NCBI RefSeq assembly: GCF_003019035.1
Contig: NZ_CP027447.1
Direction: 5' to 3' (one strand)
Length of the DNA stretch: 64,000 bases
DNA from: Escherichia coli
Lineage (GTDB): Bacteria > Pseudomonadota > Gammaproteobacteria > Enterobacterales > Enterobacteriaceae
Made by a program: the position numbers and the translations under genes. Below the pieces are notes generated by a model. The model did not search any database and had not been told where the DNA came from. It saw nothing but the letters and a program-made list of their open reading frames with translations. Positions 1 to 43,776 of this stretch are shown here, piece by piece. Every line of letters starts with the position of its first letter. The stretch's first letter is position 1.

Positions 1-188
1 ATGGTAGTTATGCTCGGGTTTTGACTGCTCCATGTCGTTCACTGCTACTTGATCAGCAAAGCACTCCTGACAGTAAGTACCGTTTTATTCTTAAATAGAA
101 AATAACAGCTGAATTACCATGGGAGCAGAAAAAAGACAAAGGCGATATCATGCTGCGTTCTAAAATTTTAATGTAAAAGGTGATGAAC

Positions 189-290
189 ATGGCAGGGATT
201 CAGGTTATCGCAGGAAGTTTTCCTAAAGGGTGGGCAAGCATGGGGTTCGGTACCATCGTGTTTGCCACCAATCCATGGAACGATGGGTAA
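189..290 (+). other. small ORF (33 aa, MAGIQVIAGSFPKGWASMGFGTIVFATNPWNDG) with SD AAGGTG 6 nt upstream
   Basis: My own translation; good Shine-Dalgarno spacing; followed by palindrome and terminator. No recognisable family. Confidence 0.2.
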
Positions 291-410
291 TGTCTGCATT
301 TTCATAATCTGTAAGCCTTTTACAATTATTAAAAATATGGCAGGCTAGTCTGGTCTCGCGAGACTGACTGAACCTCGGTCGGCTCACAGTGCATTCCTGT
401 GGGACGATGG

Positions 411-448
411 CCAGCCCGGCTTTCGGGTGCCGGGCTGGTCGTTCTTTC
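411..448 (+). terminator. rho-independent terminator (10-bp stem CCAGCCCGGC / GCCGGGCTGG, then T-rich TCGTTCTTTC)
   Basis: Perfect inverted repeat with 8-nt loop followed by a T-rich run on the + strand. Confidence 0.55.
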
Positions 449-494
449 ATGATGCGGCAGGGATAGTGGGATTTCTGTTAATGTGGTTTAGGGA

Positions 495-710
495 TTATCC
501 GGGGTGATTGTCTGCCTTTATCTGGTCCAGGGCATAAGTGATCCCTTCAGCAAAAACAGAAGTATCGAACTGCTTTTGTATTTCCTGAAAATGAACAGTG
601 GCACGACAGATACTCAGTTCTCCGCGATGTAACCGGATAATATCTTCCAGAACATTGTTCACTGCTTCGGCACGGCGCTGATGTTCTGTTAACGTTAATC
701 GGGGATTCAT
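495..710 (-). CDS. hypothetical protein, 71 aa
   Basis: ATG preceded by strong SD (AAGGAG, 7 nt spacing) on the - strand; downstream of the NTPase gene in the same orientation. No family recognised. Confidence 0.4.
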   Translation of the reverse strand: MNPRLTLTEHQRRAEAVNNVLEDIIRLHRGELSICRATVHFQEIQKQFDTSVFAEGITYALDQIKADNHPG

Positions 711-1113
711 GATGCACTCCTTAAATGATGATTTTTATGTACTCACCGGCAAAATATTCTGCCGATTACTGAACACGCATCCGGCACCTCAGGTTTTGAT
801 TTATTCTGGTTTTTTCGATATCCCGGACCAGGTTGATCACGACCAGAAAAAGTGCCGGTATTTTATTGATACGCTGATATGGCTTCGGGATAACAGCTAT
901 ATTCGTTACTCTCAGTTGCTGGCTGTGGGAGCGGCTGATGTCGTCCTCACGGAAAAAACGCTCTGTCTGCTCAATGCCATGCCGACCTTTCTGCAGCCCC
1001 GGCCCGTACCATTTAAAGAGTTGCTTCTGGATGCAGTAAAAACCGGCGAAAATGCAGTCATCGCTGAATGCGTATCCCGGATTATGCGTTACGTGTTTAA
1101 TGAACGTAAGTGA
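709..1113 (+). CDS. hypothetical protein, 134 aa (start overlaps the divergent 71-aa ORF start; 3' end overlaps the NTPase gene 3' end)
   Basis: ORF-track ORF; weak SD-like GGGGA before ATG. Could be spurious antisense ORF. Confidence 0.25.
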   Translation: MMHSLNDDFYVLTGKIFCRLLNTHPAPQVLIYSGFFDIPDQVDHDQKKCRYFIDTLIWLRDNSYIRYSQLLAVGAADVVLTEKTLCLLNAMPTFLQPRPVPFKELLLDAVKTGENAVIAECVSRIMRYVFNERK

Positions 1114-1832
1114 GGTTTATCTGCTGTCTGCATAATCCCGATAGCCAGTGCGAGGGGAAGTAATTCCGGGGAAACTCTTTCAAACAGCGATGCCCATTCT
1201 CCTCTCGCCATCACTCTGTCCAGCCCGCCCCCCAGCTGCATTTCAGCAATCTTCCTGATTTCCCGGAACAACGCCGCTTTGATCTCTTCATGCTCAGCTT
1301 TATTTTCCGGTGTCAGAATGTATTCGTCGAAGAACCGGGGAGGCTGGTTAACGGGGATTGTGTTTACCGGGATGTGTTCCTGTTTCCCGTACTTCGGGGA
1401 CGAACAACATTCTGTTGGCTGACCGGTGAGTTTACGTAACTCCTTCATGAGCAGCTCCTGATCGTAAACTGTCATCAGTGCCGCAATGGTGGCATGCAGT
1501 GCATCGGGCAGTATCCAGGGTTGCCGGCCCGTGGGGCATATAACATCCAGTAGCTCATTCGTCCGACAGATACGCTCCTCTCCGTATGACAACAGGCCCT
1601 GTCCCGTGTATTCCTCCAGCCTGATCACTGTGCCAGCCCGTGGCTTCTGCCAGGTCGTCAGATCATCGCCACTCATACGGCGCTCATTCTCCACGTCAGC
1701 AGCATCGACAATGACGCTGTTTCCGAGTTCCTGTTTCACCACTTCCTCTATCCGCGCCAGTACGTAACTTTTACCGCTGCCCACAGGACCGGACACGGTG
1801 ACAGTGATGACCGGATTCAGTGTATGTGTCAT
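1089..1832 (-). CDS. P-loop NTPase, 247 aa, Walker A GPVGSGKS at residues 15-22 (nucleotide/polynucleotide-kinase-like N-terminus), unassigned family
   Basis: Walker A motif read directly; transcribed antisense to the phage late operon; C-terminal 130 aa without recognisable motifs. Confidence 0.6.
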   Translation of the reverse strand: MTHTLNPVITVTVSGPVGSGKSYVLARIEEVVKQELGNSVIVDAADVENERRMSGDDLTTWQKPRAGTVIRLEEYTGQGLLSYGEERICRTNELLDVICPTGRQPWILPDALHATIAALMTVYDQELLMKELRKLTGQPTECCSSPKYGKQEHIPVNTIPVNQPPRFFDEYILTPENKAEHEEIKAALFREIRKIAEMQLGGGLDRVMARGEWASLFERVSPELLPLALAIGIMQTADKPHLRSLNT

Positions 1833-1962
1833 GTTGCATTCTCCTCTGTGAATAATTCATCGTTTATCCTGCACATCCCGTATCCCCGGCTCTCTTAACG
1901 CGCTTTAAAATCCTTCGCGCCCTGTATTTGTGATGCTGTCTCCACCAGACAAGGAGACACAC
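1833..1962. promoter_or_regulatory. divergent intergenic region; 7-bp inverted repeat TGTCTCC(1937-1943)/GGAGACA(1953-1959) whose 3' arm contains the SD of the first late gene
   Basis: Inverted repeat seen directly; position corresponds to the lys late promoter of Mu-like phages. Confidence 0.3.
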
Positions 1963-2313
1963 ATGAAAAACCTGAAAAAATTCATTCCCCCTGTTAAAAA
2001 ACCTCGCCTCAGCGGCTGGCTGCTGACCTCAGTGCTGTTGCTGGGCACCATCGCTCTGGTCTCGCCACAGCAGCTGCCTGTTGTGATCTACAAGCTGGCA
2101 CTCATCACGCTGGCAGCAGTGCTGGGTTACTGGCTTGACCGTTCACTCTTCCCCAAAGCCCGTCCCGGTCAGTACCTGAAACATGAAGACAGGCTGATGG
2201 CTGAAGGGCGTTTCCCTGTGCAGACCGGCCTTCACCTTGTATTTTCTGCTGCGTTAATCCGCCGTGCACTGATTGTTGCAGCGGTCTGTCTGGCTGTGGC
2301 AACAGGACTGTGA
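1963..2313 (+). CDS. membrane protein with 2-3 predicted TM helices, putative holin (ORF-track start 1930 is GTG; ATG 1963 has SD AAGGAG)
   Basis: Hydrophobic segments in translation; directly upstream of and overlapping the endolysin gene. Confidence 0.5.
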   Translation: MKNLKKFIPPVKKPRLSGWLLTSVLLLGTIALVSPQQLPVVIYKLALITLAAVLGYWLDRSLFPKARPGQYLKHEDRLMAEGRFPVQTGLHLVFSAALIRRALIVAAVCLAVATGL

Positions 2314-3038
2314 CCATGAACTGGCCTCAAATCACCCTCATTATTCTGTTCGCCTTTGGTCTGGGCGTAACCGCCATCAGACACGGAGAACCACGTAACG
2401 ATAAATACAGCTTCTGGTGGCAGCTTGCTGGCAACCTGGTGATTGTCTGGCTGCTCTGGTGTGGCGGCTTCTTCAGTCAGGCCCGCGCAGCGCAGCCTCC
2501 GCAGGCTGCGCTGCAGTATCGCGATGATGTGATCCGTAATGCCCGGCTTGAATGGGGACTGTCTGCGCCGGTGGCCGATTTCGCTGCGCAACTGCATCAG
2601 GAAAGCGGCTGGCGACCTGATGCGGTCTCGCCGGCTGGCGCTCAGGGACTGGCGCAGTTCATGCCCGCCACTGCTGACTGGATAAGTCAGCTGATGCCGG
2701 GGCTTAACAGCCGTGAGCCGTTTAATCCGGCATGGGCCATCCGGGCGCTGGTCAGCTATGACCGCTGGCTGTGGCAGCGCGTCAGCGCCGCCAGTGACTG
2801 CGAACGTATGGCCATGACACTGTCGGGCTATAACGGTGGTCTGGGCTGGGTACAACGGGACAGGCAGCTAGCATCACAGAAAGGCCTGGACAGTACCCGC
2901 TGGTTCGGGCATGTCGCCACGGTGAATGCCGGACGCAATGCTGCCAGCTGGCGGGAGAACCGCCATTATCCGCAGCGCATCCTGCACGAACTGGCCCCCC
3001 GTTATCTGACATGGGGGGGCGGCAGCTGTGTGGACTAA
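2310..3038 (+). CDS. endolysin: lytic transglycosylase (SLT-domain) with N-terminal hydrophobic anchor, SAR-type candidate (alternative start ATG 2316)
   Basis: SLT-like catalytic region (QLHQESGW...GAQGLAQFMPATA); N-terminal hydrophobic stretches. Confidence 0.7.
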   Translation: MTMNWPQITLIILFAFGLGVTAIRHGEPRNDKYSFWWQLAGNLVIVWLLWCGGFFSQARAAQPPQAALQYRDDVIRNARLEWGLSAPVADFAAQLHQESGWRPDAVSPAGAQGLAQFMPATADWISQLMPGLNSREPFNPAWAIRALVSYDRWLWQRVSAASDCERMAMTLSGYNGGLGWVQRDRQLASQKGLDSTRWFGHVATVNAGRNAASWRENRHYPQRILHELAPRYLTWGGGSCVD

Positions 3039-3681
3039 CCTGCTAAAAAATCTGCCGTGGCGCAGTCTGCTGCTGGCTGTGCTCATAAATGCTTTTCTGA
3101 TTGGACTTTATTACCTGGGCTACAAAAGCGGGCATGAAAACGCCACGCGCGACGGCGATAAGGCGATCAGTGAGTTGCAGTCAGCATTCGACACATACAA
3201 AACGGAGCAGGCAATGCTTGAGAACGCTGCGTTGCGAGCATGGGCAAAACGGTATCAGGAGCAGGTGGCCGCCGGGCAGCGGGCTGAAGCCGGTTATCTT
3301 GAGCAGATTGCTCAACTGGAGAGCCGGAACAAACAACTACAGGGGCAAATTAACGATGTCACACAGCGCTGGATTGATGAAAAAGGTAAGAGCCATCCCA
3401 TTGAGTGCGTGTTTACTCGCGGTTTCGTGCGCCAGTACAACGCCGCACTCGGGTATGACAACGCATCCGTCGACACCGGTCATTCAGACGCAACTGCCGC
3501 CGCTGGCACCGGCACTGGCGCAGCGACCGGGCAACCTGAAACCGCTGACGCCCGGTTACGCAATTCGGGTGTCTCCCAGCGTGACGTCCTCGCCAACATC
3601 ATCGACAACGCAGGGCAATGTCGTCGCTGGCGAAACCAGATAAACGCGCTGCTGGATGAACGGGAAGGATTACAGAAATGA
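3028..3681 (+). CDS. i-spanin (Rz-like): N-terminal TM helix plus coiled-coil periplasmic domain (GTG start in ORF track)
   Basis: N-terminal TM (LLLAVLINAFLIGLYYLGY), coiled-coil region, and position directly after endolysin. Confidence 0.5.
   Translation: MWTNLLKNLPWRSLLLAVLINAFLIGLYYLGYKSGHENATRDGDKAISELQSAFDTYKTEQAMLENAALRAWAKRYQEQVAAGQRAEAGYLEQIAQLESRNKQLQGQINDVTQRWIDEKGKSHPIECVFTRGFVRQYNAALGYDNASVDTGHSDATAAAGTGTGAATGQPETADARLRNSGVSQRDVLANIIDNAGQCRRWRNQINALLDEREGLQK
3377..3643 (+). CDS. o-spanin (Rz1-like) lipoprotein, 88 aa, entirely embedded in the +1 frame of the i-spanin gene
   Basis: MKKVRAIPLSACLLAVSC signal/lipobox-like N-terminus followed by proline-rich sequence; ORF-track ORF 3101..3643 trimmed to internal ATG 3377. 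Confidence 0.45.
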   Translation: MKKVRAIPLSACLLAVSCASTTPHSGMTTHPSTPVIQTQLPPLAPALAQRPGNLKPLTPGYAIRVSPSVTSSPTSSTTQGNVVAGETR

Positions 3682-4004
3682 CACTGCAGGTTGAATTCTG
3701 GACGGTGGTGAGTTTTCTGCTCACCTTCATGGGGTTTGTTGGAGGGCTCGCCAAATGGTTGTTCAGTAAAACAGAAGAACGCCAGGCGGCACGATTCGCC
3801 TCCCTTGAACAGGCCCTGCAACAGTCCGCCTCCAACTGGGGCGAGCTGGAAAAGGAATTTATGCGATTTAAAGCGGATTTACCGCTGAATTATGTCCGTC
3901 GCGAGGATTATATCCGTGGCCAGACAGTCATCGAGGCCAAACTGGACGCACTTTACAACAAACTGGAAGTGGTACAGCAGTACCGCAATACCGGAGGTCA
4001 ATAA
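3678..4004 (+). CDS. small membrane-anchored coiled-coil protein, 108 aa (lysis-cassette accessory)
   Basis: N-terminal TM helix; SD GAAGGA before ATG; start overlaps spanin stop. Confidence 0.4.
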   Translation: MTLQVEFWTVVSFLLTFMGFVGGLAKWLFSKTEERQAARFASLEQALQQSASNWGELEKEFMRFKADLPLNYVRREDYIRGQTVIEAKLDALYNKLEVVQQYRNTGGQ

Positions 4005-4315
4005 TGGTCGATATTACCCGGGTACGCCGCGAATCCCTGCGCTGGAGTCTGCTGGTTGCCCTGAACAAAACCCGCCCTTACACCGCCAGCGAAACGTTGC
4101 TGCTGGACGTGTCCCGTGCCATCTACCCGGACACCACGCAACTGGAGCTGCGCCGGGAGCTTGATTATCTGGCAGATCGCAAAATGGTGGAGCTGGAGAA
4201 GAGACCGTCCGGTGACTGGTTTGCCGATCTGAGTCGCCTTGGTGTGGATATTGTGGAATACACCGTGGAATGCGGCCCGGGTATTGCCCGCCCGGAAAAA
4301 TACTGGAGTGAGTGA
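4004..4315 (+). CDS. hypothetical phage protein, 103 aa
   Basis: SD GGAGG before ATG; within the late operon. Confidence 0.4.
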   Translation: MVDITRVRRESLRWSLLVALNKTRPYTASETLLLDVSRAIYPDTTQLELRRELDYLADRKMVELEKRPSGDWFADLSRLGVDIVEYTVECGPGIARPEKYWSE

Positions 4316-4317
4316 TT

Positions 4318-4866
4318 ATGGGACGTCGCAGCAGCATTGATTCTCTGCCGACGGAGGTCCGCCGCTGGCTGGAGCGGGCACTGACGGAGAATAACTTCAG
4401 TGGATATGCCCGGCTGGAAGCCCTGCTGAAGGAGAAGGGATACGTCATCACCCGCTCTTCCCTGCAGCGGTTTGGCTACAAAATGGAGCGACAACTGGCC
4501 CGCATCCGCGCCGCCACCGAGGCCGCGCGTCTGATGGCGCAGGAAGCCGGTGACGAGGCGGACGATCGTTCTGCCGGGATGATGGCACTGATTCAGACCG
4601 AGATGCTGGATGTTCTGATGCGTCTGCAGGAAATCGGGGAAAGTGATGATCCTGCAAAACGCGCAAAACTGCTGGCCACTGCTTCGGAAAGTATAGCCAC
4701 ACTGGTACGGGCTTCGGTGACCCACAAGCGATTCCGGGCCGAGGTGCTGGCAAAAATTGAGGCGCGGATGAATGCTCTGGAAAAACAGGCGAAGTCCGGC
4801 GACACCCGCCTGAGTCTGGAAACCCTGAAGATGGTGCGGGAACAGATTTACGGGGTGATCTCATGA
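4318..4866 (+). CDS. DUF3486-like protein, Mu gp27 position (putative small terminase subunit); ORF-track start 4312 is GTG
   Basis: Position immediately upstream of large terminase and resemblance to Mu-type gp27 from memory. Confidence 0.55.
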   Translation: MGRRSSIDSLPTEVRRWLERALTENNFSGYARLEALLKEKGYVITRSSLQRFGYKMERQLARIRAATEAARLMAQEAGDEADDRSAGMMALIQTEMLDVLMRLQEIGESDDPAKRAKLLATASESIATLVRASVTHKRFRAEVLAKIEARMNALEKQAKSGDTRLSLETLKMVREQIYGVIS

Positions 4867-6179
4867 CAGCGGCCATTCAGCTGTATCCCTATCAGCAGTC
4901 GTGGTTTCTGGATCGTGCCCGTTTCAAGATTGGTATGTTTGCCCGTCAGACGGGCAAGACGTTCACCACCACGCTGGAACTGGTTGATGACTGTTTTGAA
5001 ACGGAGGCCTCAGGGGGACGTACACGCTGGGTGATCCTCTCGCGCGGGGAGCGTCAGGCAAAAGAAGCCATGGTGGAGGGGGTGAAAAAACACTGCAGCG
5101 CCTACCGGATGGCGGCCCGTGAGGTGGAAAGTTATTACCGTGCTGAAAGCGGCGAACGCTACACCATGCTTGAGGTGGAGTTACCCGGCGGCTCCCGTAT
5201 CACGGCCCTGCCGGCGAATCCCGACACGGCTCGTGGGTTTGCGGCTAACGTCTTTCTGGATGAGTTCGCCTTCCATGCCGACAGTCGCAAAATCTGGACC
5301 GCTCTGTTTCCGGTCATTTCCAACGGCTACAGACTGCGTGTGACATCGACACCGAACGGCAAGGGAAACAAGTTTTATGAACTGATGACCAGCAACGCCC
5401 TTGAAAATGTCTGGTCACGTCACATCGTGGATATTTACCGTGCCGTGCGTGATGGTCTGCCGCGGGATATTGCACAGATGCGACAGGCGCTCAACGATGA
5501 TGACGCCTGGGCACAGGAGTTTGAACTGAAGTGGCTGGATGAGGCATCGGCCTGGCTGACGTTTGAACTGATTGACGGCGTGGAGCACGATGCTGCCGGG
5601 CTGCCGGTGCACTATACGGGTGGCCCCTGCTTTGTGGGGGTGGATATTGCTGTTCGTAATGACCTGTTTGTCATCTGGGTGCTTGAACAGGTGGGGGATG
5701 TCTACTGGACCCGGGAAATCATCACCCGTAAACGGGCCACCTTTGCTGAGCAGGATGCTTTGCTGGATGACGTATTTTTCCGTTACCGCGTGCTGCGCTG
5801 CTGTATGGATCAGACCGGGATGGGAGAAAAGCCGGTGGAGGATGCACAGGGTCGCCATGGCAGAAGCCGTGTGGAGGGGGTGATATTTAACAGCCCGAAC
5901 AAGCTCACCCTCGCGACCCGTGGCAGGGAGATGTTTGAGGACCGCCGCCTGCGTATTCCGGCGGGAGATGTGGTCCTGCGCAGTGATCTGCATAAACTTC
6001 GCAAGGTTACCGGGCCTACCGGAACTCCCCGCTTTGTGGCCGAAAGTGATGCAGCAGGTCACGCCGACCGCACATGGGCCTGTTTTCTGGCAATAAACGC
6101 CACTGACGGACCGTCAGGGCCGGTGATGGCCCGTTCGCGTCACCGCCGTGAGGCTGGTCATATACTGGAGGGATTCTGA
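4863..6179 (+). CDS. terminase large subunit, 438 aa
   Basis: N-terminal ATPase motif (FARQTGKT) and position before the portal gene. Confidence 0.8.
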   Translation: MTAAIQLYPYQQSWFLDRARFKIGMFARQTGKTFTTTLELVDDCFETEASGGRTRWVILSRGERQAKEAMVEGVKKHCSAYRMAAREVESYYRAESGERYTMLEVELPGGSRITALPANPDTARGFAANVFLDEFAFHADSRKIWTALFPVISNGYRLRVTSTPNGKGNKFYELMTSNALENVWSRHIVDIYRAVRDGLPRDIAQMRQALNDDDAWAQEFELKWLDEASAWLTFELIDGVEHDAAGLPVHYTGGPCFVGVDIAVRNDLFVIWVLEQVGDVYWTREIITRKRATFAEQDALLDDVFFRYRVLRCCMDQTGMGEKPVEDAQGRHGRSRVEGVIFNSPNKLTLATRGREMFEDRRLRIPAGDVVLRSDLHKLRKVTGPTGTPRFVAESDAAGHADRTWACFLAINATDGPSGPVMARSRHRREAGHILEGF

Positions 6180-41214: not shown

Positions 41215-43776
41215 ATGAGTGCAATAGAAAATTTTGATGCCCATACGCCCATGATGCAGCAGTATCTCAAGCTGAAAGCCCAGCATCCCGAGATCCTGCT
41301 GTTCTATCGGATGGGTGACTTTTACGAACTGTTTTATGACGACGCGAAACGCGCCTCGCAGCTGCTGGATATTTCACTGACCAAACGCGGTGCTTCCGCG
41401 GGAGAGCCGATCCCGATGGCGGGGATCCCCTACCATGCGGTGGAAAACTATCTCGCCAAACTGGTGAATCAGGGCGAGTCCGTTGCCATCTGCGAACAAA
41501 TTGGCGATCCGGCGACCAGCAAAGGTCCGGTTGAGCGCAAAGTTGTGCGTATCGTTACGCCGGGCACCATCAGCGATGAAGCGCTGTTGCAGGAGCGTCA
41601 GGATAACCTGCTGGCAGCTATCTGGCAGGACAGCAAAGGGTTCGGCTACGCGACGCTGGATATCAGTTCCGGGCGTTTTCGCCTGAGCGAACCGGCTGAC
41701 CGGGAAACGATGGCGGCAGAACTGCAACGCACTAATCCGGCGGAACTGCTGTATGCAGAAGATTTTGCTGAAATGTCGTTAATTGAAGGTCGTCGCGGTC
41801 TGCGCCGTCGTCCGCTGTGGGAGTTTGAAATCGACACCGCGCGCCAGCAGTTGAATCTGCAATTTGGCACCCGCGATCTGGTCGGTTTTGGCGTCGAGAA
41901 CGCGCCGCGCGGACTTTGTGCTGCCGGTTGTCTGTTGCAGTATGCGAAAGATACCCAACGTACGACTCTGCCGCATATTCGTTCCATCACCATGGAACGT
42001 GAGCAGGACAGCATCATTATGGATGCCGCGACGCGTCGTAATCTGGAAATCACCCAGAACCTGGCGGGCGGTGCGGAAAACACGCTGGCTTCAGTGCTCG
42101 ACTGCACCGTCACGCCGATGGGCAGCCGTATGCTGAAACGCTGGCTGCATATGCCAGTGCGCGATACCCGCGTGTTGCTTGAGCGCCAGCAAACTATTGG
42201 CGCATTGCAGGATTTCACCGCCGAGCTGCAGCCGGTACTGCGTCAGGTCGGCGACCTGGAACGTATTCTGGCGCGTCTGGCTTTACGAACTGCTCGCCCA
42301 CGCGATCTGGCCCGTATGCGTCACGCTTTCCAGCAACTGCCGGAGCTGCGTGCGCTATTAGAAAATGTCGATAGCGCTCCGGTACAGGCGTTGCGTGAAA
42401 AAATGGGCGAGTTTGCCGAGCTGCGCGATCTGCTGGAGCGAGCAATCATCGACACACCGCCAGTGCTGGTACGCGACGGTGGTGTTATCGCACCGGGCTA
42501 TAACGAAGAGCTGGATGAGTGGCGCGCGCTGGCTGACGGCGCGACCGATTATCTGGAGCGTCTGGAAGTCCGCGAGCGTGAACGTACTGGCCTGGACACG
42601 CTGAAAGTCGGCTTTAACGCGGTTCATGGTTATTACATTCAGATCAGCCGTGGACAAAGCCATCTGGCACCCATCAATTACATGCGTCGCCAGACGCTGA
42701 AAAACGCCGAGCGCTACATTATTCCAGAGCTAAAAGAGTACGAAGATAAAGTTCTCACCTCAAAAGGCAAAGCACTGGCACTGGAAAAACAGCTTTATGA
42801 AGAGCTGTTCGACCTGCTGTTGCCGCATCTGGAAGCGTTGCAACAGAGCGCAAGCGCACTGGCAGAACTTGATGTGCTGGTTAACCTGGCGGAGCGGGCC
42901 TATACCCTGAACTACACCTGCCCGACCTTTATTGATAAACCGGGTATTCGCATCACCGAAGGCCGCCATCCGGTGGTTGAACAGGTACTGAACGAGCCAT
43001 TTATCGCCAACCCGCTGAACCTGTCGCCGCAGCGCCGCATGTTGATCATCACCGGTCCGAACATGGGCGGTAAAAGTACCTATATGCGCCAGACCGCGTT
43101 GATTGCGCTGATGGCCTATATCGGCAGCTACGTACCGGCGCAAAAAGTCGAGATTGGGCCGATCGACCGTATCTTCACGCGCGTAGGAGCAGCGGACGAT
43201 CTGGCATCCGGGCGTTCAACCTTTATGGTGGAAATGACCGAAACCGCCAATATTTTACATAACGCCACCGAGTACAGTCTGGTGCTGATGGATGAGATTG
43301 GGCGCGGAACCTCCACTTACGATGGTCTGTCGCTGGCGTGGGCGTGCGCGGAAAATCTGGCGAATAAGATTAAAGCGTTGACGTTGTTTGCCACCCACTA
43401 TTTCGAGCTAACCCAGTTACCGGAGAAAATGGAAGGCGTCGCCAACGTGCATCTTGATGCACTGGAGCACGGCGACACCATTGCCTTTATGCACAGCGTG
43501 CAGGATGGCGCGGCGAGCAAAAGCTACGGCCTGGCGGTTGCTGCTCTGGCGGGCGTGCCAAAAGAGGTTATTAAGCGCGCACGGCAAAAACTGCGTGAGC
43601 TGGAAAGCATTTCGCCGAACGCCGCCGCTACGCAAGTGGATGGTACGCAAATGTCTTTGCTGTCAGTGCCAGAAGAAACGTCGCCTGCGGTCGAGGCACT
43701 GGAAAACCTGGACCCGGATTCACTCACCCCGCGTCAGGCGCTGGAATGGATTTATCGCTTGAAGAGTCTGGTGTAA
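41215..43776 (+). CDS. mutS: DNA mismatch repair protein MutS
   Basis: Recognised sequence; Walker [10 protein letters not shown]. Confidence 0.95.

Follow-up and report, generated by a model that had tools for sequence, protein, structure and literature searches.

Positions 1963-4004 of the Escherichia coli DNA analysed here, a window of 64,000 nucleotides from contig NZ_CP027447.1 (assembly GCF_003019035.1), carry five abutting genes, all on the + strand. They raise the question of whether this is a full phage lysis system with an outer-membrane spanin subunit hidden inside another gene, and of how its endolysin would reach the cell wall. The genes are as follows:

1963..2313, + strand: holin, 116 aa (PF13272, phrog_1528)
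2316..3038, + strand: SLT-family lytic transglycosylase endolysin, 240 aa (PF01464, phrog_669)
3028..3681, + strand: i-spanin (Rz-like), 217 aa, GTG start (phrog_1403)
3377..3643, + strand: predicted o-spanin (Rz1-like) nested within the i-spanin gene (+1 frame), 88 aa (lipobox, homology to BcepMu gp24)
3678..4004, + strand: BcepMu gp25-like membrane-tethered protein, 108 aa (phrog_462)

A first-pass annotation, made from the letters alone, had proposed this order and these identities, and ORF calls together with Pfam and PHROG searches recovered all five reading frames as it gave them. The gene content and the homology of the products, both directly observed, suggest that the region is very probably a lysis cassette from the late operon of a transposable prophage of BcepMu type (Bcepmuvirus-like) carried by the E. 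coli chromosome; judged by gene content, the cassette is an ordinary and intact Mu-like prophage lysis gene set. It is followed downstream by a gp26-like gene, a Mu gp27 TerS (PF11985, E 6e-44), TerL and the portal gene. In a scan of positions 1-5000, the count of sigma-70-like promoters and terminators was not above that in shuffled sequence and none was usefully placed, which is consistent with a single late transcript. The window's first position already lies inside the prophage. PADLOC gave no match for the four ORFs that precede the holin gene, and a scan across the window found no tRNA.

The first gene runs from an ATG at 1963, with AAGGAG 7 nt upstream, to a stop at 2313, and its product matches the Holin_2-3 family (PF13272; E 1.1e-40, 138.6 bits, cut-off 27) and the phrog_1528 holins (E 7e-54), with 51% identity to BcepMu gp21. 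Its N-terminus is basic, and three hydrophobic stretches lie at aa 16-34, 40-58 and 92-110. The Pfam score above threshold, the small size, the presence of more than one transmembrane segment and the placement directly 5' of the endolysin gene together point to a holin. An NCBIfam search returned no family for this protein, the o-spanin or the gp25-like protein.

The second product, encoded from an ATG at 2316 to position 3038, is on its sequence a member of the SLT/GH23 lytic transglycosylase family, as it passes the PF01464 threshold (E 1.4e-14, 54.1 bits, cut-off 21.3) and carries the E-S motif. It also matches phrog_669 (E 1e-69), and is 59% identical to both BcepMu gp22 and B3 ORF25. The predicted catalytic residue, Glu96 in an HQES motif (nt 2601-2603), aligns to Glu478 of Slt70, and no variation is seen at E96, S97, the GxQGxxQFMP region and YNGG in 16 homologues.

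Sharing 11 nt with the 3' end of the endolysin gene, the third gene encodes a protein strongly related to phrog_1403, 'Rz-like spanin' (E 2.7e-88), with 28-32% identity to BcepMu gp23 (Rz) and B3 ORF27. Its single N-terminal transmembrane segment (aa 13-31, nt 3064-3120) precedes a large, largely helical domain predicted to be periplasmic, as expected of an i-spanin. At least one periplasmic cysteine is found in 507 of 528 two-component spanins (PMC6139136), and this protein has two, Cys127 and Cys198.

The fourth gene is the one most easily overlooked. The first-pass annotation had described an 88-aa proline-rich lipoprotein wholly within the spanin gene in the +1 frame, and such a frame is indeed present, running from an ATG at 3377 to a stop at 3643, inside 3028-3681 and ending 38 nt short of the i-spanin stop. 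That annotation had also held that ORF calling hides this gene behind a spurious N-terminal extension; in agreement, automatic calling reports the frame as a 180-aa ORF with a TTG start (3101-3643), and the extension is not conserved, being interrupted by a stop in two of the related loci (L002 and L003). The signal features of the shorter product can be read directly: the N-terminus MKKVRAIPLSACLLAVS is followed by Cys18 (codon nt 3428-3430), with a signal peptide spanning aa 1-17. The lipobox, for which a check had been proposed, satisfies the PROSITE PS51257-type rule; its sequence, AVSC, departs from the strict [LVI][ASTVI][GAS]C consensus at the -3 position, and the +2 residue is Ala rather than Asp, which points to outer-membrane sorting. 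The mature protein of 71 aa contains 11 Pro (15%) and 21 Ser+Thr, and no Cys apart from that of the lipobox. It shares 36% identity with BcepMu gp24 and 41% with the +1 ORF of B3. The mature o-spanin of phage lambda is likewise Pro-rich, and its i-spanin partner has periplasmic Cys (PMC6139136).

It might be asked whether this frame is a chance opening in a GC-rich gene that is never expressed, with the phage using the Rz-like protein only, or no spanin at all. A +1 ORF of at least 88 aa, of any kind, indeed arises in 22% of synonymous-codon resamplings of the i-spanin gene, the Shine-Dalgarno sequence ahead of the 3377 start is weak (GGA), and the protein has no match in Pfam, PHROG or NCBIfam, with Pfam at E up to 10 giving noise only for it and for the gp25-like protein. 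An exact look-up of three o-spanin sequences also found none of them in a collection of 15 billion proteins. However, a lipoprotein-like +1 ORF appears in just 53 of 5,000 resamplings (1.1%), and its conservation in related prophages and phages, which the first-pass annotation had made a point on which its claim should stand or fall, was observed directly. Across 60 loci spanning Enterobacterales, Pseudomonas and Burkholderia and scored by a strict lipoprotein pattern, the ORF is found in the +1 frame of 55, against none of the 60 in the +2 frame, and persists down to about 30% i-spanin identity. The five loci that lack it are L020 and L038, which have partial i-spanin matches only, and L049, L050 and L052. 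Signal peptide, lipobox Cys and Pro-rich region are all retained, the alignment showing a conserved Cys and the motifs TTPPS and PPLPPAL..RP...LTPGY. Over i-spanin codons 151-170, the wobble position (position 2 of the o-spanin codons) is the least variable, at 0.5-0.6 bits, and position 1 (position 3 of the o-spanin codons) is the most variable, at 1.1 bits. This inversion of codon-position variability over the conserved o-spanin motif indicates, at the level of sequence evolution, that selection maintains the embedded frame in relatives. Taken together with the annotation of the BcepMu orthologue as Rz1, these observations make a chance frame highly improbable. The two proteins thus very likely constitute a two-component spanin of the embedded Rz/Rz1 type.

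The same cassette, at about 92-95% identity, occurs in 637 of 5,426 complete E. coli genomes, as well as in the phages KP12 and PhiKM; the match to PhiKM is at 93.7% nucleotide identity, and its record classes the phage as Bcepmuvirus. Neither the three RefSeq E. coli records that were inspected nor the KP12 and PhiKM records annotate the o-spanin. The arrangement of the hidden lipoprotein gene is already described for phage BcepMu, and it is routine annotation that misses the gene. The biology is that of textbook phage lysis by holin, endolysin and two-component spanin, and the practical value of the locus lies in the annotation gap that it exposes.

From this gene set we infer a course of lysis that extends to the control of timing, the export route, spanin function and the role of the gp25-like protein. 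The PF13272 holin would build up in the inner membrane and permeabilise or depolarise it at a set time. The SLT transglycosylase would reach the periplasmic face by means of its own N-terminal hydrophobic region rather than through the holin hole, and would there cut glycan strands with Glu96. The o-spanin, translated from the ATG at 3377 in the +1 frame within the i-spanin gene, would as an outer-membrane lipoprotein join the periplasmic helical domain of the inner-membrane i-spanin in a complex spanning the periplasm, which, once the wall is gone, would disrupt or fuse the outer membrane. The gp25-like membrane-tethered protein may be an accessory that modulates endolysin release, by analogy with Mu gp25.

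The export step may take one of three forms, namely SAR release, a cleaved signal or a stable anchor. The first-pass annotation had assigned the endolysin an N-terminal hydrophobic anchor; a hydrophobic region is present, but it comprises two segments rather than one, at aa 3-21 (nt 2322-2378) and aa 35-53 (nt 2418-2474), and no basic residue stands ahead of the first. An AlphaFold2 model built on a 16-sequence alignment places helices at 3-22 and 31-56 with low confidence, and its mean pLDDT of 63.8 would not support a fold search. Residues 1-54 also match phrog_5479, a family of 53-aa stand-alone proteins, and a conserved Ala-x-Ala site, here Ala-Arg-Ala at aa 56-58 (nt 2481-2489), lies before the catalytic domain. 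Two marginal helices and an Ala-x-Ala site fit signal-peptidase cleavage equally well, and the SAR label is thus only that of a candidate.

One possibility is that this is a true SAR endolysin, with helix 2 lodged uncleaved in the membrane until pinholin-type depolarisation lets it exit, and with the gp25-like protein acting as releasin, as in Mu. The helices are suitably marginal in hydrophobicity (Hessa sums of +2.6 and +3.4; the proven SAR of Mu gp22 has +7.5), Chamblee et al. 2022 classed homologous SLT endolysins of Pseudomonas Mu-like phages, including JBD25, as SAR type (PMC9239132), and the slot of Mu gp25 is occupied by the gp25-like protein, in which a coiled coil accompanies the single transmembrane segment. 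Yet the Ala-x-Ala immediately before the catalytic domain is retained in most N-terminal variants, suggesting signal-peptidase cleavage, and Gly, Ala, Ser and Thr make up only 6/19 and 4/19 of the helix residues, against 10/19 in Mu gp22. Moreover, the gp25-like protein is not a DUF2730 protein, and the cassette has a holin whereas Mu has none. We regard this form of export as a possibility on the unlikely side. The same retained Ala-x-Ala site favours a different route, in which Sec export and cleavage after Ala58 would yield a free periplasmic enzyme, comparable to the secreted endolysin Lys44, and leave a 58-aa two-helix membrane peptide that regulates lysis. A signal peptide has been predicted for the KS10 homologue, with Lys44 cited as precedent (PMC2628397), and 48 JBD25-like Pseudomonas phages encode the two-helix piece on its own, as a 52-aa gene (phrog_5479), while their SLT domain has its own lipoprotein-type signal, LLSAC. 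These 48 phages are, however, at least 92% identical, so that the persistence of the 52-aa ORF among them does not count as independent evidence. Helix 1 is, furthermore, evolutionarily dispensable, being degenerate in the common E. coli variant and absent in Photorhabdus and BcepMu. This second route is likewise a doubtful prospect that we hold tentatively. The endolysin family provides a small natural set of export signals, ranging from two helices through a single helix to a split gene and a signal of lipoprotein type, which could serve for studying how exported SLT endolysins are restrained.

The last gene, which the first-pass annotation had called a further TM/coiled-coil protein, does encode one transmembrane segment (about aa 7-25, nt 3696-3752) near its N-terminus, followed by K/R-rich residues and a helical tail that is predicted to be cytoplasmic and bears the invariant motif P..YVRRED..R.Q..EAK.D. 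It matches phrog_462 (E 1.6e-36), and is 50% identical to BcepMu gp25 and 42% to B3 ORF28. Membership of the DUF2730 (PF10805) releasins was considered and rejected: PF10805 gave no match to this protein even at E up to 10, although it does match Mu gp25 (2.5e-13), JBD25 gp29 (4.6e-9) and a protein of the related locus L021 (1.1e-6). A profile-profile comparison by hhalign of the BcepMu-gp25 family with DUF2730 likewise gave a probability of 0.2%, showing no similarity. The position directly 3' of the spanins and the Mu gp25-like architecture are a matter of resemblance only, and not of membership.

The genomic context of this family bears on its function. Locus L021 has a holin, endolysin and spanins of the window's type, but the next three genes, encoding the DUF2730 protein, a Mu-type gp26 and a different TerS, have been replaced together, which suggests a recombination breakpoint directly after the spanins. 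In locus L040, a gp25-like protein stands beside an endolysin without an export signal. Because of this neighbour, and because the gp25 slot moves with the head module in L021, a lysis role for the gp25-like protein is uncertain. Both observations are also what would be expected if the gene at 3678-4004 were part of a head and packaging module, moving together with gp26 and gp27 but taking no part in lysis. Against this, the Mu protein of the same slot and architecture is needed for endolysin release (PMC9239132), and a membrane anchor would be unexpected in a packaging protein; we consider an assignment to the head module conceivable, though somewhat less probable than otherwise. A further proposal, that the endolysin gene gives two products through a signal-peptidase cut at Ala-x-Ala, with the N-terminal module serving as a membrane regulator of lysis, and that the gp25 family is a second lineage of releasins, is quite improbable as a whole. 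If true, the BcepMu gp25 family would represent releasin-type regulators unrelated in sequence to DUF2730, in phages that have holins.

Among known systems, Mu had been suggested by the first-pass annotation as the comparator, through gp22, gp23, gp23.1 and gp25. These genes occupy the same genome position, upstream of gp26-gp29, and include the same endolysin and spanin roles, and Mu gp25, like the last gene here, combines one transmembrane segment with a coiled coil after the spanins. The Mu endolysin, in contrast, is a SAR muramidase rather than an SLT enzyme, no holin is present, and gp25 is a DUF2730 releasin. Homology to Mu did not survive a blastp comparison with its gp19, gp20, gp22, gp23, gp24, gp25 and gp26, which gave nothing better than E 0.28; Mu is an analogue, and the proper homologues are BcepMu gp21-gp25 and B3 ORF24-28. 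The Rz/Rz1 pair of lambda, likened here by architecture, similarly has a lipoprotein gene nested in the +1 frame, entirely within the gene of a type II inner-membrane protein, but Cys29 of lambda Rz1 has no counterpart in the o-spanin of the window, which is longer (71 aa mature).

The JBD25-like phages and B3 have a homologous holin, SLT endolysin and i-spanin/o-spanin pair. In JBD25 the two-helix piece is split off as a gene of its own, and a DUF2730 protein is present. B3 retains the same gene order in ORF24-ORF28, and its endolysin similarly has a fused two-helix N-terminus, ending in GGFFS.A.A. It differs in an additional 70-aa ORF between endolysin and spanin, and in an o-spanin that extends 7 nt beyond the i-spanin stop and is thus overlapped rather than embedded. 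The closest correspondence is with BcepMu, despite its different host, Burkholderia, and an endolysin, gp22, with one short N-terminal signal (MRVLIAFVVALLGAAAPVAA, followed by Gln) in place of two helices. Its gp21-gp25 (holin, SLT endolysin, Rz, embedded Rz1 and inner-membrane protein) have the same order, with every gene homologous at 28-59% identity, and gp24 is annotated in its record as 'Rz1, out of frame, embedded proline-rich protein', the o-spanin being embedded in the +1 frame in both. As in the window, the BcepMu cassette then continues into gp26, TerS, TerL and the portal gene, so that synteny over gp21-gp29 is one-to-one, the embedded Rz1 included, with pairwise identities of 51/59/28/36/50/57%.

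The lysis cassette at 1963-4004 of the window comprises five genes on the same strand, the neighbouring ends of which abut or overlap, and the ORFs with their Pfam and PHROG matches bear out the five-gene arrangement proposed in the first-pass annotation.

Genes of the lysis cassette (window positions)
1963-2313, +, holin of 116 aa, N-terminus basic, hydrophobic segments three; PF13272 "putative 2/3 TMD holin" (E 1e-40), phrog_1528 holin
2316-3038, +, SLT endolysin of 240 aa; SLT domain PF01464, phrog_669
3028-3681, +, i-spanin of 217 aa with a single N-terminal transmembrane segment; phrog_1403 "Rz-like spanin" (2.7e-88)
3377-3643, +, o-spanin ORF of 88 aa in the +1 frame of the i-spanin gene
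3678-4004, +, gp25-like gene, 108 aa; transmembrane segment at the N-terminus, then a helical tail; phrog_462

Downstream lie a gp26-like gene and then a Mu gp27-type TerS (PF11985), TerL and portal; given these packaging genes, the cassette stands at the start of a Mu-like prophage's late region, with E. coli host genes resuming roughly 25 kb downstream. The cassette belongs to a well-described kind of phage lysis system. On the whole, the initial observation is confirmed and its interpretation supported, with three corrections concerning the comparator, the endolysin N-terminus and the last gene.

The product of the embedded ORF starts MKKVRAIPLSACLLAVS-C18-A, with a basic n-region and an uncharged h-region, and the lipobox on which the case for the ORF at 3377 had been staked beforehand is present and satisfies the PROSITE-type rule. 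The Ala at position +2 implies that the lipoprotein would be sorted to the outer membrane, and the mature peptide of 71 aa contains 11 Pro and 21 Ser/Thr. Synonymous resampling of the i-spanin gene (5,000 replicates) often produced a long +1 ORF (22%) but seldom one that was lipoprotein-like (1.1%). The 180-aa ORF returned by mechanical ORF calling (3101-3643) can be set aside as a spurious extension, since in two related loci (L002 and L003) a stop breaks the frame upstream of the ATG; the suggestion that such an N-terminal extension hides the o-spanin is thus upheld.

Comparative evidence is the decisive part of the sequence-based case that the embedded gene is real. Fifty loci were gathered from species-representative genomes with an i-spanin alignment as query, and phage and E. 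coli loci were added to give 60, covering Enterobacterales, Pseudomonas, Burkholderia and one faecal phage contig, the most divergent at ~30% i-spanin identity. A +1 lipoprotein ORF terminating near the i-spanin stop is found in 55 of these, as against none of the 60 with such an ORF in the +2 frame or inside the i-spanin frame itself, so that the expected conservation of the embedded frame holds. In the o-spanin alignment the lipobox Cys hardly varies, and the motifs TTPPS and LPPLPPAL..RP...LTPGY are shared. When 27 distinct enterobacterial i-spanin genes are aligned by codon, variability upstream of the overlap follows the usual pattern with position 3 most variable (0.91/0.76/1.29 bits at positions 1/2/3), and the pattern is inverted at codons 151-170 (1.1/0.7/0.5-0.6 bits), a stretch which encodes the conserved o-spanin motif and in which the third base of each i-spanin codon is the second base of an o-spanin codon.

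The architecture is mixed inside this one i-spanin/o-spanin family: the o-spanin is embedded in 39 loci and barely overlapped in 16, where it extends 7-16 nt beyond the i-spanin stop (including L006, with the o-spanin at 2829-3107 and the i-spanin stop at 3100, L039, L041, L044-L048, L053 and L056). No spanin family mixing embedded with other architectures was reported by Kongari et al. 2018 (PMC6139136). The embedded gene is unannotated in all three RefSeq E. coli records inspected and in the records of the phages KP12 and PhiKM, and an exact look-up of three o-spanin sequences in a 15-billion-protein collection found none of them. The value of the cassette lies in this annotation gap and in a natural series of endolysin export signals.

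In the endolysin, Glu96 of HQESGW aligns to the catalytic Glu478 of E. coli Slt70, and 16 homologues show little or no variation at Glu96, Ser97, YNGG and the GAQGLAQFMP region. The first-pass annotation had described a hydrophobic N-terminal anchor of candidate SAR type; the hydrophobic N-terminus stands, and SAR remains a candidate label, but there are two helices rather than one (aa 3-21, KD 1.82, Hessa sum +2.6; aa 35-53, KD 1.43, Hessa sum +3.4). AlphaFold2 places helices at 3-22 and 31-56 with low overall confidence. The helices are separated by the basic loop RHGEPRNDKYS, and GGFFSQARA|AQPP follows the second. As no basic residue precedes helix 1 and the basic loop comes after it, the positive-inside rule suggests that the N-terminus and catalytic domain are both periplasmic. 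Most variants retain a hydrophobic segment followed by small-x-small directly before the catalytic domain, and export by the endolysin's own signal is therefore predicted. Its sequence is compatible with a SAR endolysin, with a secreted enzyme freed by cleavage and with a stable anchor. Chamblee et al. class the Pseudomonas SLT endolysins, including that of JBD25, as SAR type (PMC9239132), and a cleavable signal was predicted for another homologue in the KS10 paper (PMC2628397).

The export region of this family is highly plastic across relatives (window 2316-2489; L011 1203-1361; from 1562 in L006, 2917 in L002 and 2918 in L023). The Pseudomonas phage B3 shares the two-helix form; in the commonest E. 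coli variant the first helix is charged and degenerate; Photorhabdus and Xenorhabdus have one segment resembling an in-frame deletion (MNWRQIIGIVLLWCGG...ALA|DE); and Lonsdalea, Pectobacterium, Ralstonia and the Burkholderia phage BcepMu have unrelated single signals. In 48 JBD25-like Pseudomonas phages the two-helix piece is a separate 52-aa ORF, which explains the phrog_5479 match to aa 1-54 of the window endolysin, and the SLT domain carries a lipoprotein-type signal of its own, LLSAC.

Three further loci depart from this layout. In a human faecal phage contig (MT835710; L008 ~1840-2600) the holin frame continues into the SLT catalytic domain (…LGLTLGLQAEWGLDAPVSTF…) through a deletion that takes out the export region; either a defective phage or an error of assembly could account for it. 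Salmonella Infantis SARB27 (STM4217 region; L007 3013-3585) has a remnant with holin, signal-less SLT gene and gp25-like gene, lacking spanin genes and followed directly by tail genes, and is probably a decayed element. In Stutzerimonas stutzeri (L040 2615-3094) homologous spanins and a gp25-like gene stand beside a different endolysin of 159 aa (…RNYNPGNLE…), which shows that the endolysin module has been swapped within the cassette.

In the lysis pathway that we propose, late transcription would yield all five proteins, the endolysin would reach the periplasmic face via its own signal, the holin would act as the timer by making the membrane permeable or depolarising it, and the SLT enzyme would then degrade the murein.

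Cassette DNA is matched by Klebsiella phage KP12 (92.7%), Escherichia phage PhiKM, classified as Bcepmuvirus (93.7%), Phi06_2974 B, and 637 of 5,426 complete E. coli genomes at ~90-95% identity. The top match in the latter collection is 95.2%, and mutS in the host flank (41215-43776) has its best match in E. coli SCU-301 (100% identity), the next-best genomes listed reaching only 97.6%; the exact prophage variant thus appears to be absent from the complete-genome set. Immediately upstream of the holin lie a 134-aa protein (709-1113, +; phrog_2266) and a divergently oriented 247-aa P-loop protein (1089-1832, -; GPVGSGKS; phrog_3787, of unknown function). Both are kept in E. coli relatives, neither was matched by PADLOC, and both are possible cargo or moron genes.

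Comparison with Mu gp25 among other lysis proteins had been suggested earlier: a transmembrane protein with a helical tail does follow the spanins, but it falls outside the Mu gp25 family. The window protein gave no PF10805 (DUF2730) match at E up to 10, and hhalign of the BcepMu gp25 family, with its invariant core P..YVRRED..R.Q..EAK.D, against DUF2730 gave 0.2% probability, which rules out membership; PF10805 is matched by Mu gp25, JBD25 gp29 and a protein of the Citrobacter braakii ATCC 51113 locus (L021 4139-4441). There the DUF2730 protein directly follows window-type holin, endolysin and spanins, and it has been swapped in together with a Mu-type gp26 and another TerS as one block, the mosaic breakpoint lying exactly where the spanin genes end; the gp25 slot thus moves as part of the head module. 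The Stutzerimonas gp25-like protein is paired with an endolysin without an export signal. As the window protein resembles the Mu releasin gp25 in architecture and in its place in the gene order, a lysis role may be proposed by analogy.

The Mu lysis proteins, suggested earlier as comparator, prove unsuitable, Mu gp19-gp26 having no similarity to any window protein; BcepMu or B3 should be used instead, and B3 ORF24-29 are matched as well. Gene order in the annotated BcepMu genome is identical to that seen here (gp21 holin, gp22 SLT endolysin, gp23 Rz, gp24, gp25 putative inner-membrane protein, gp26, TerS, TerL, portal), each window protein is homologous to its counterpart among gp21-gp26 (51, 59, 28, 36, 50 and 57% identity, in order), and gp24 is already annotated there as "Rz1, out of frame, embedded proline-rich protein".
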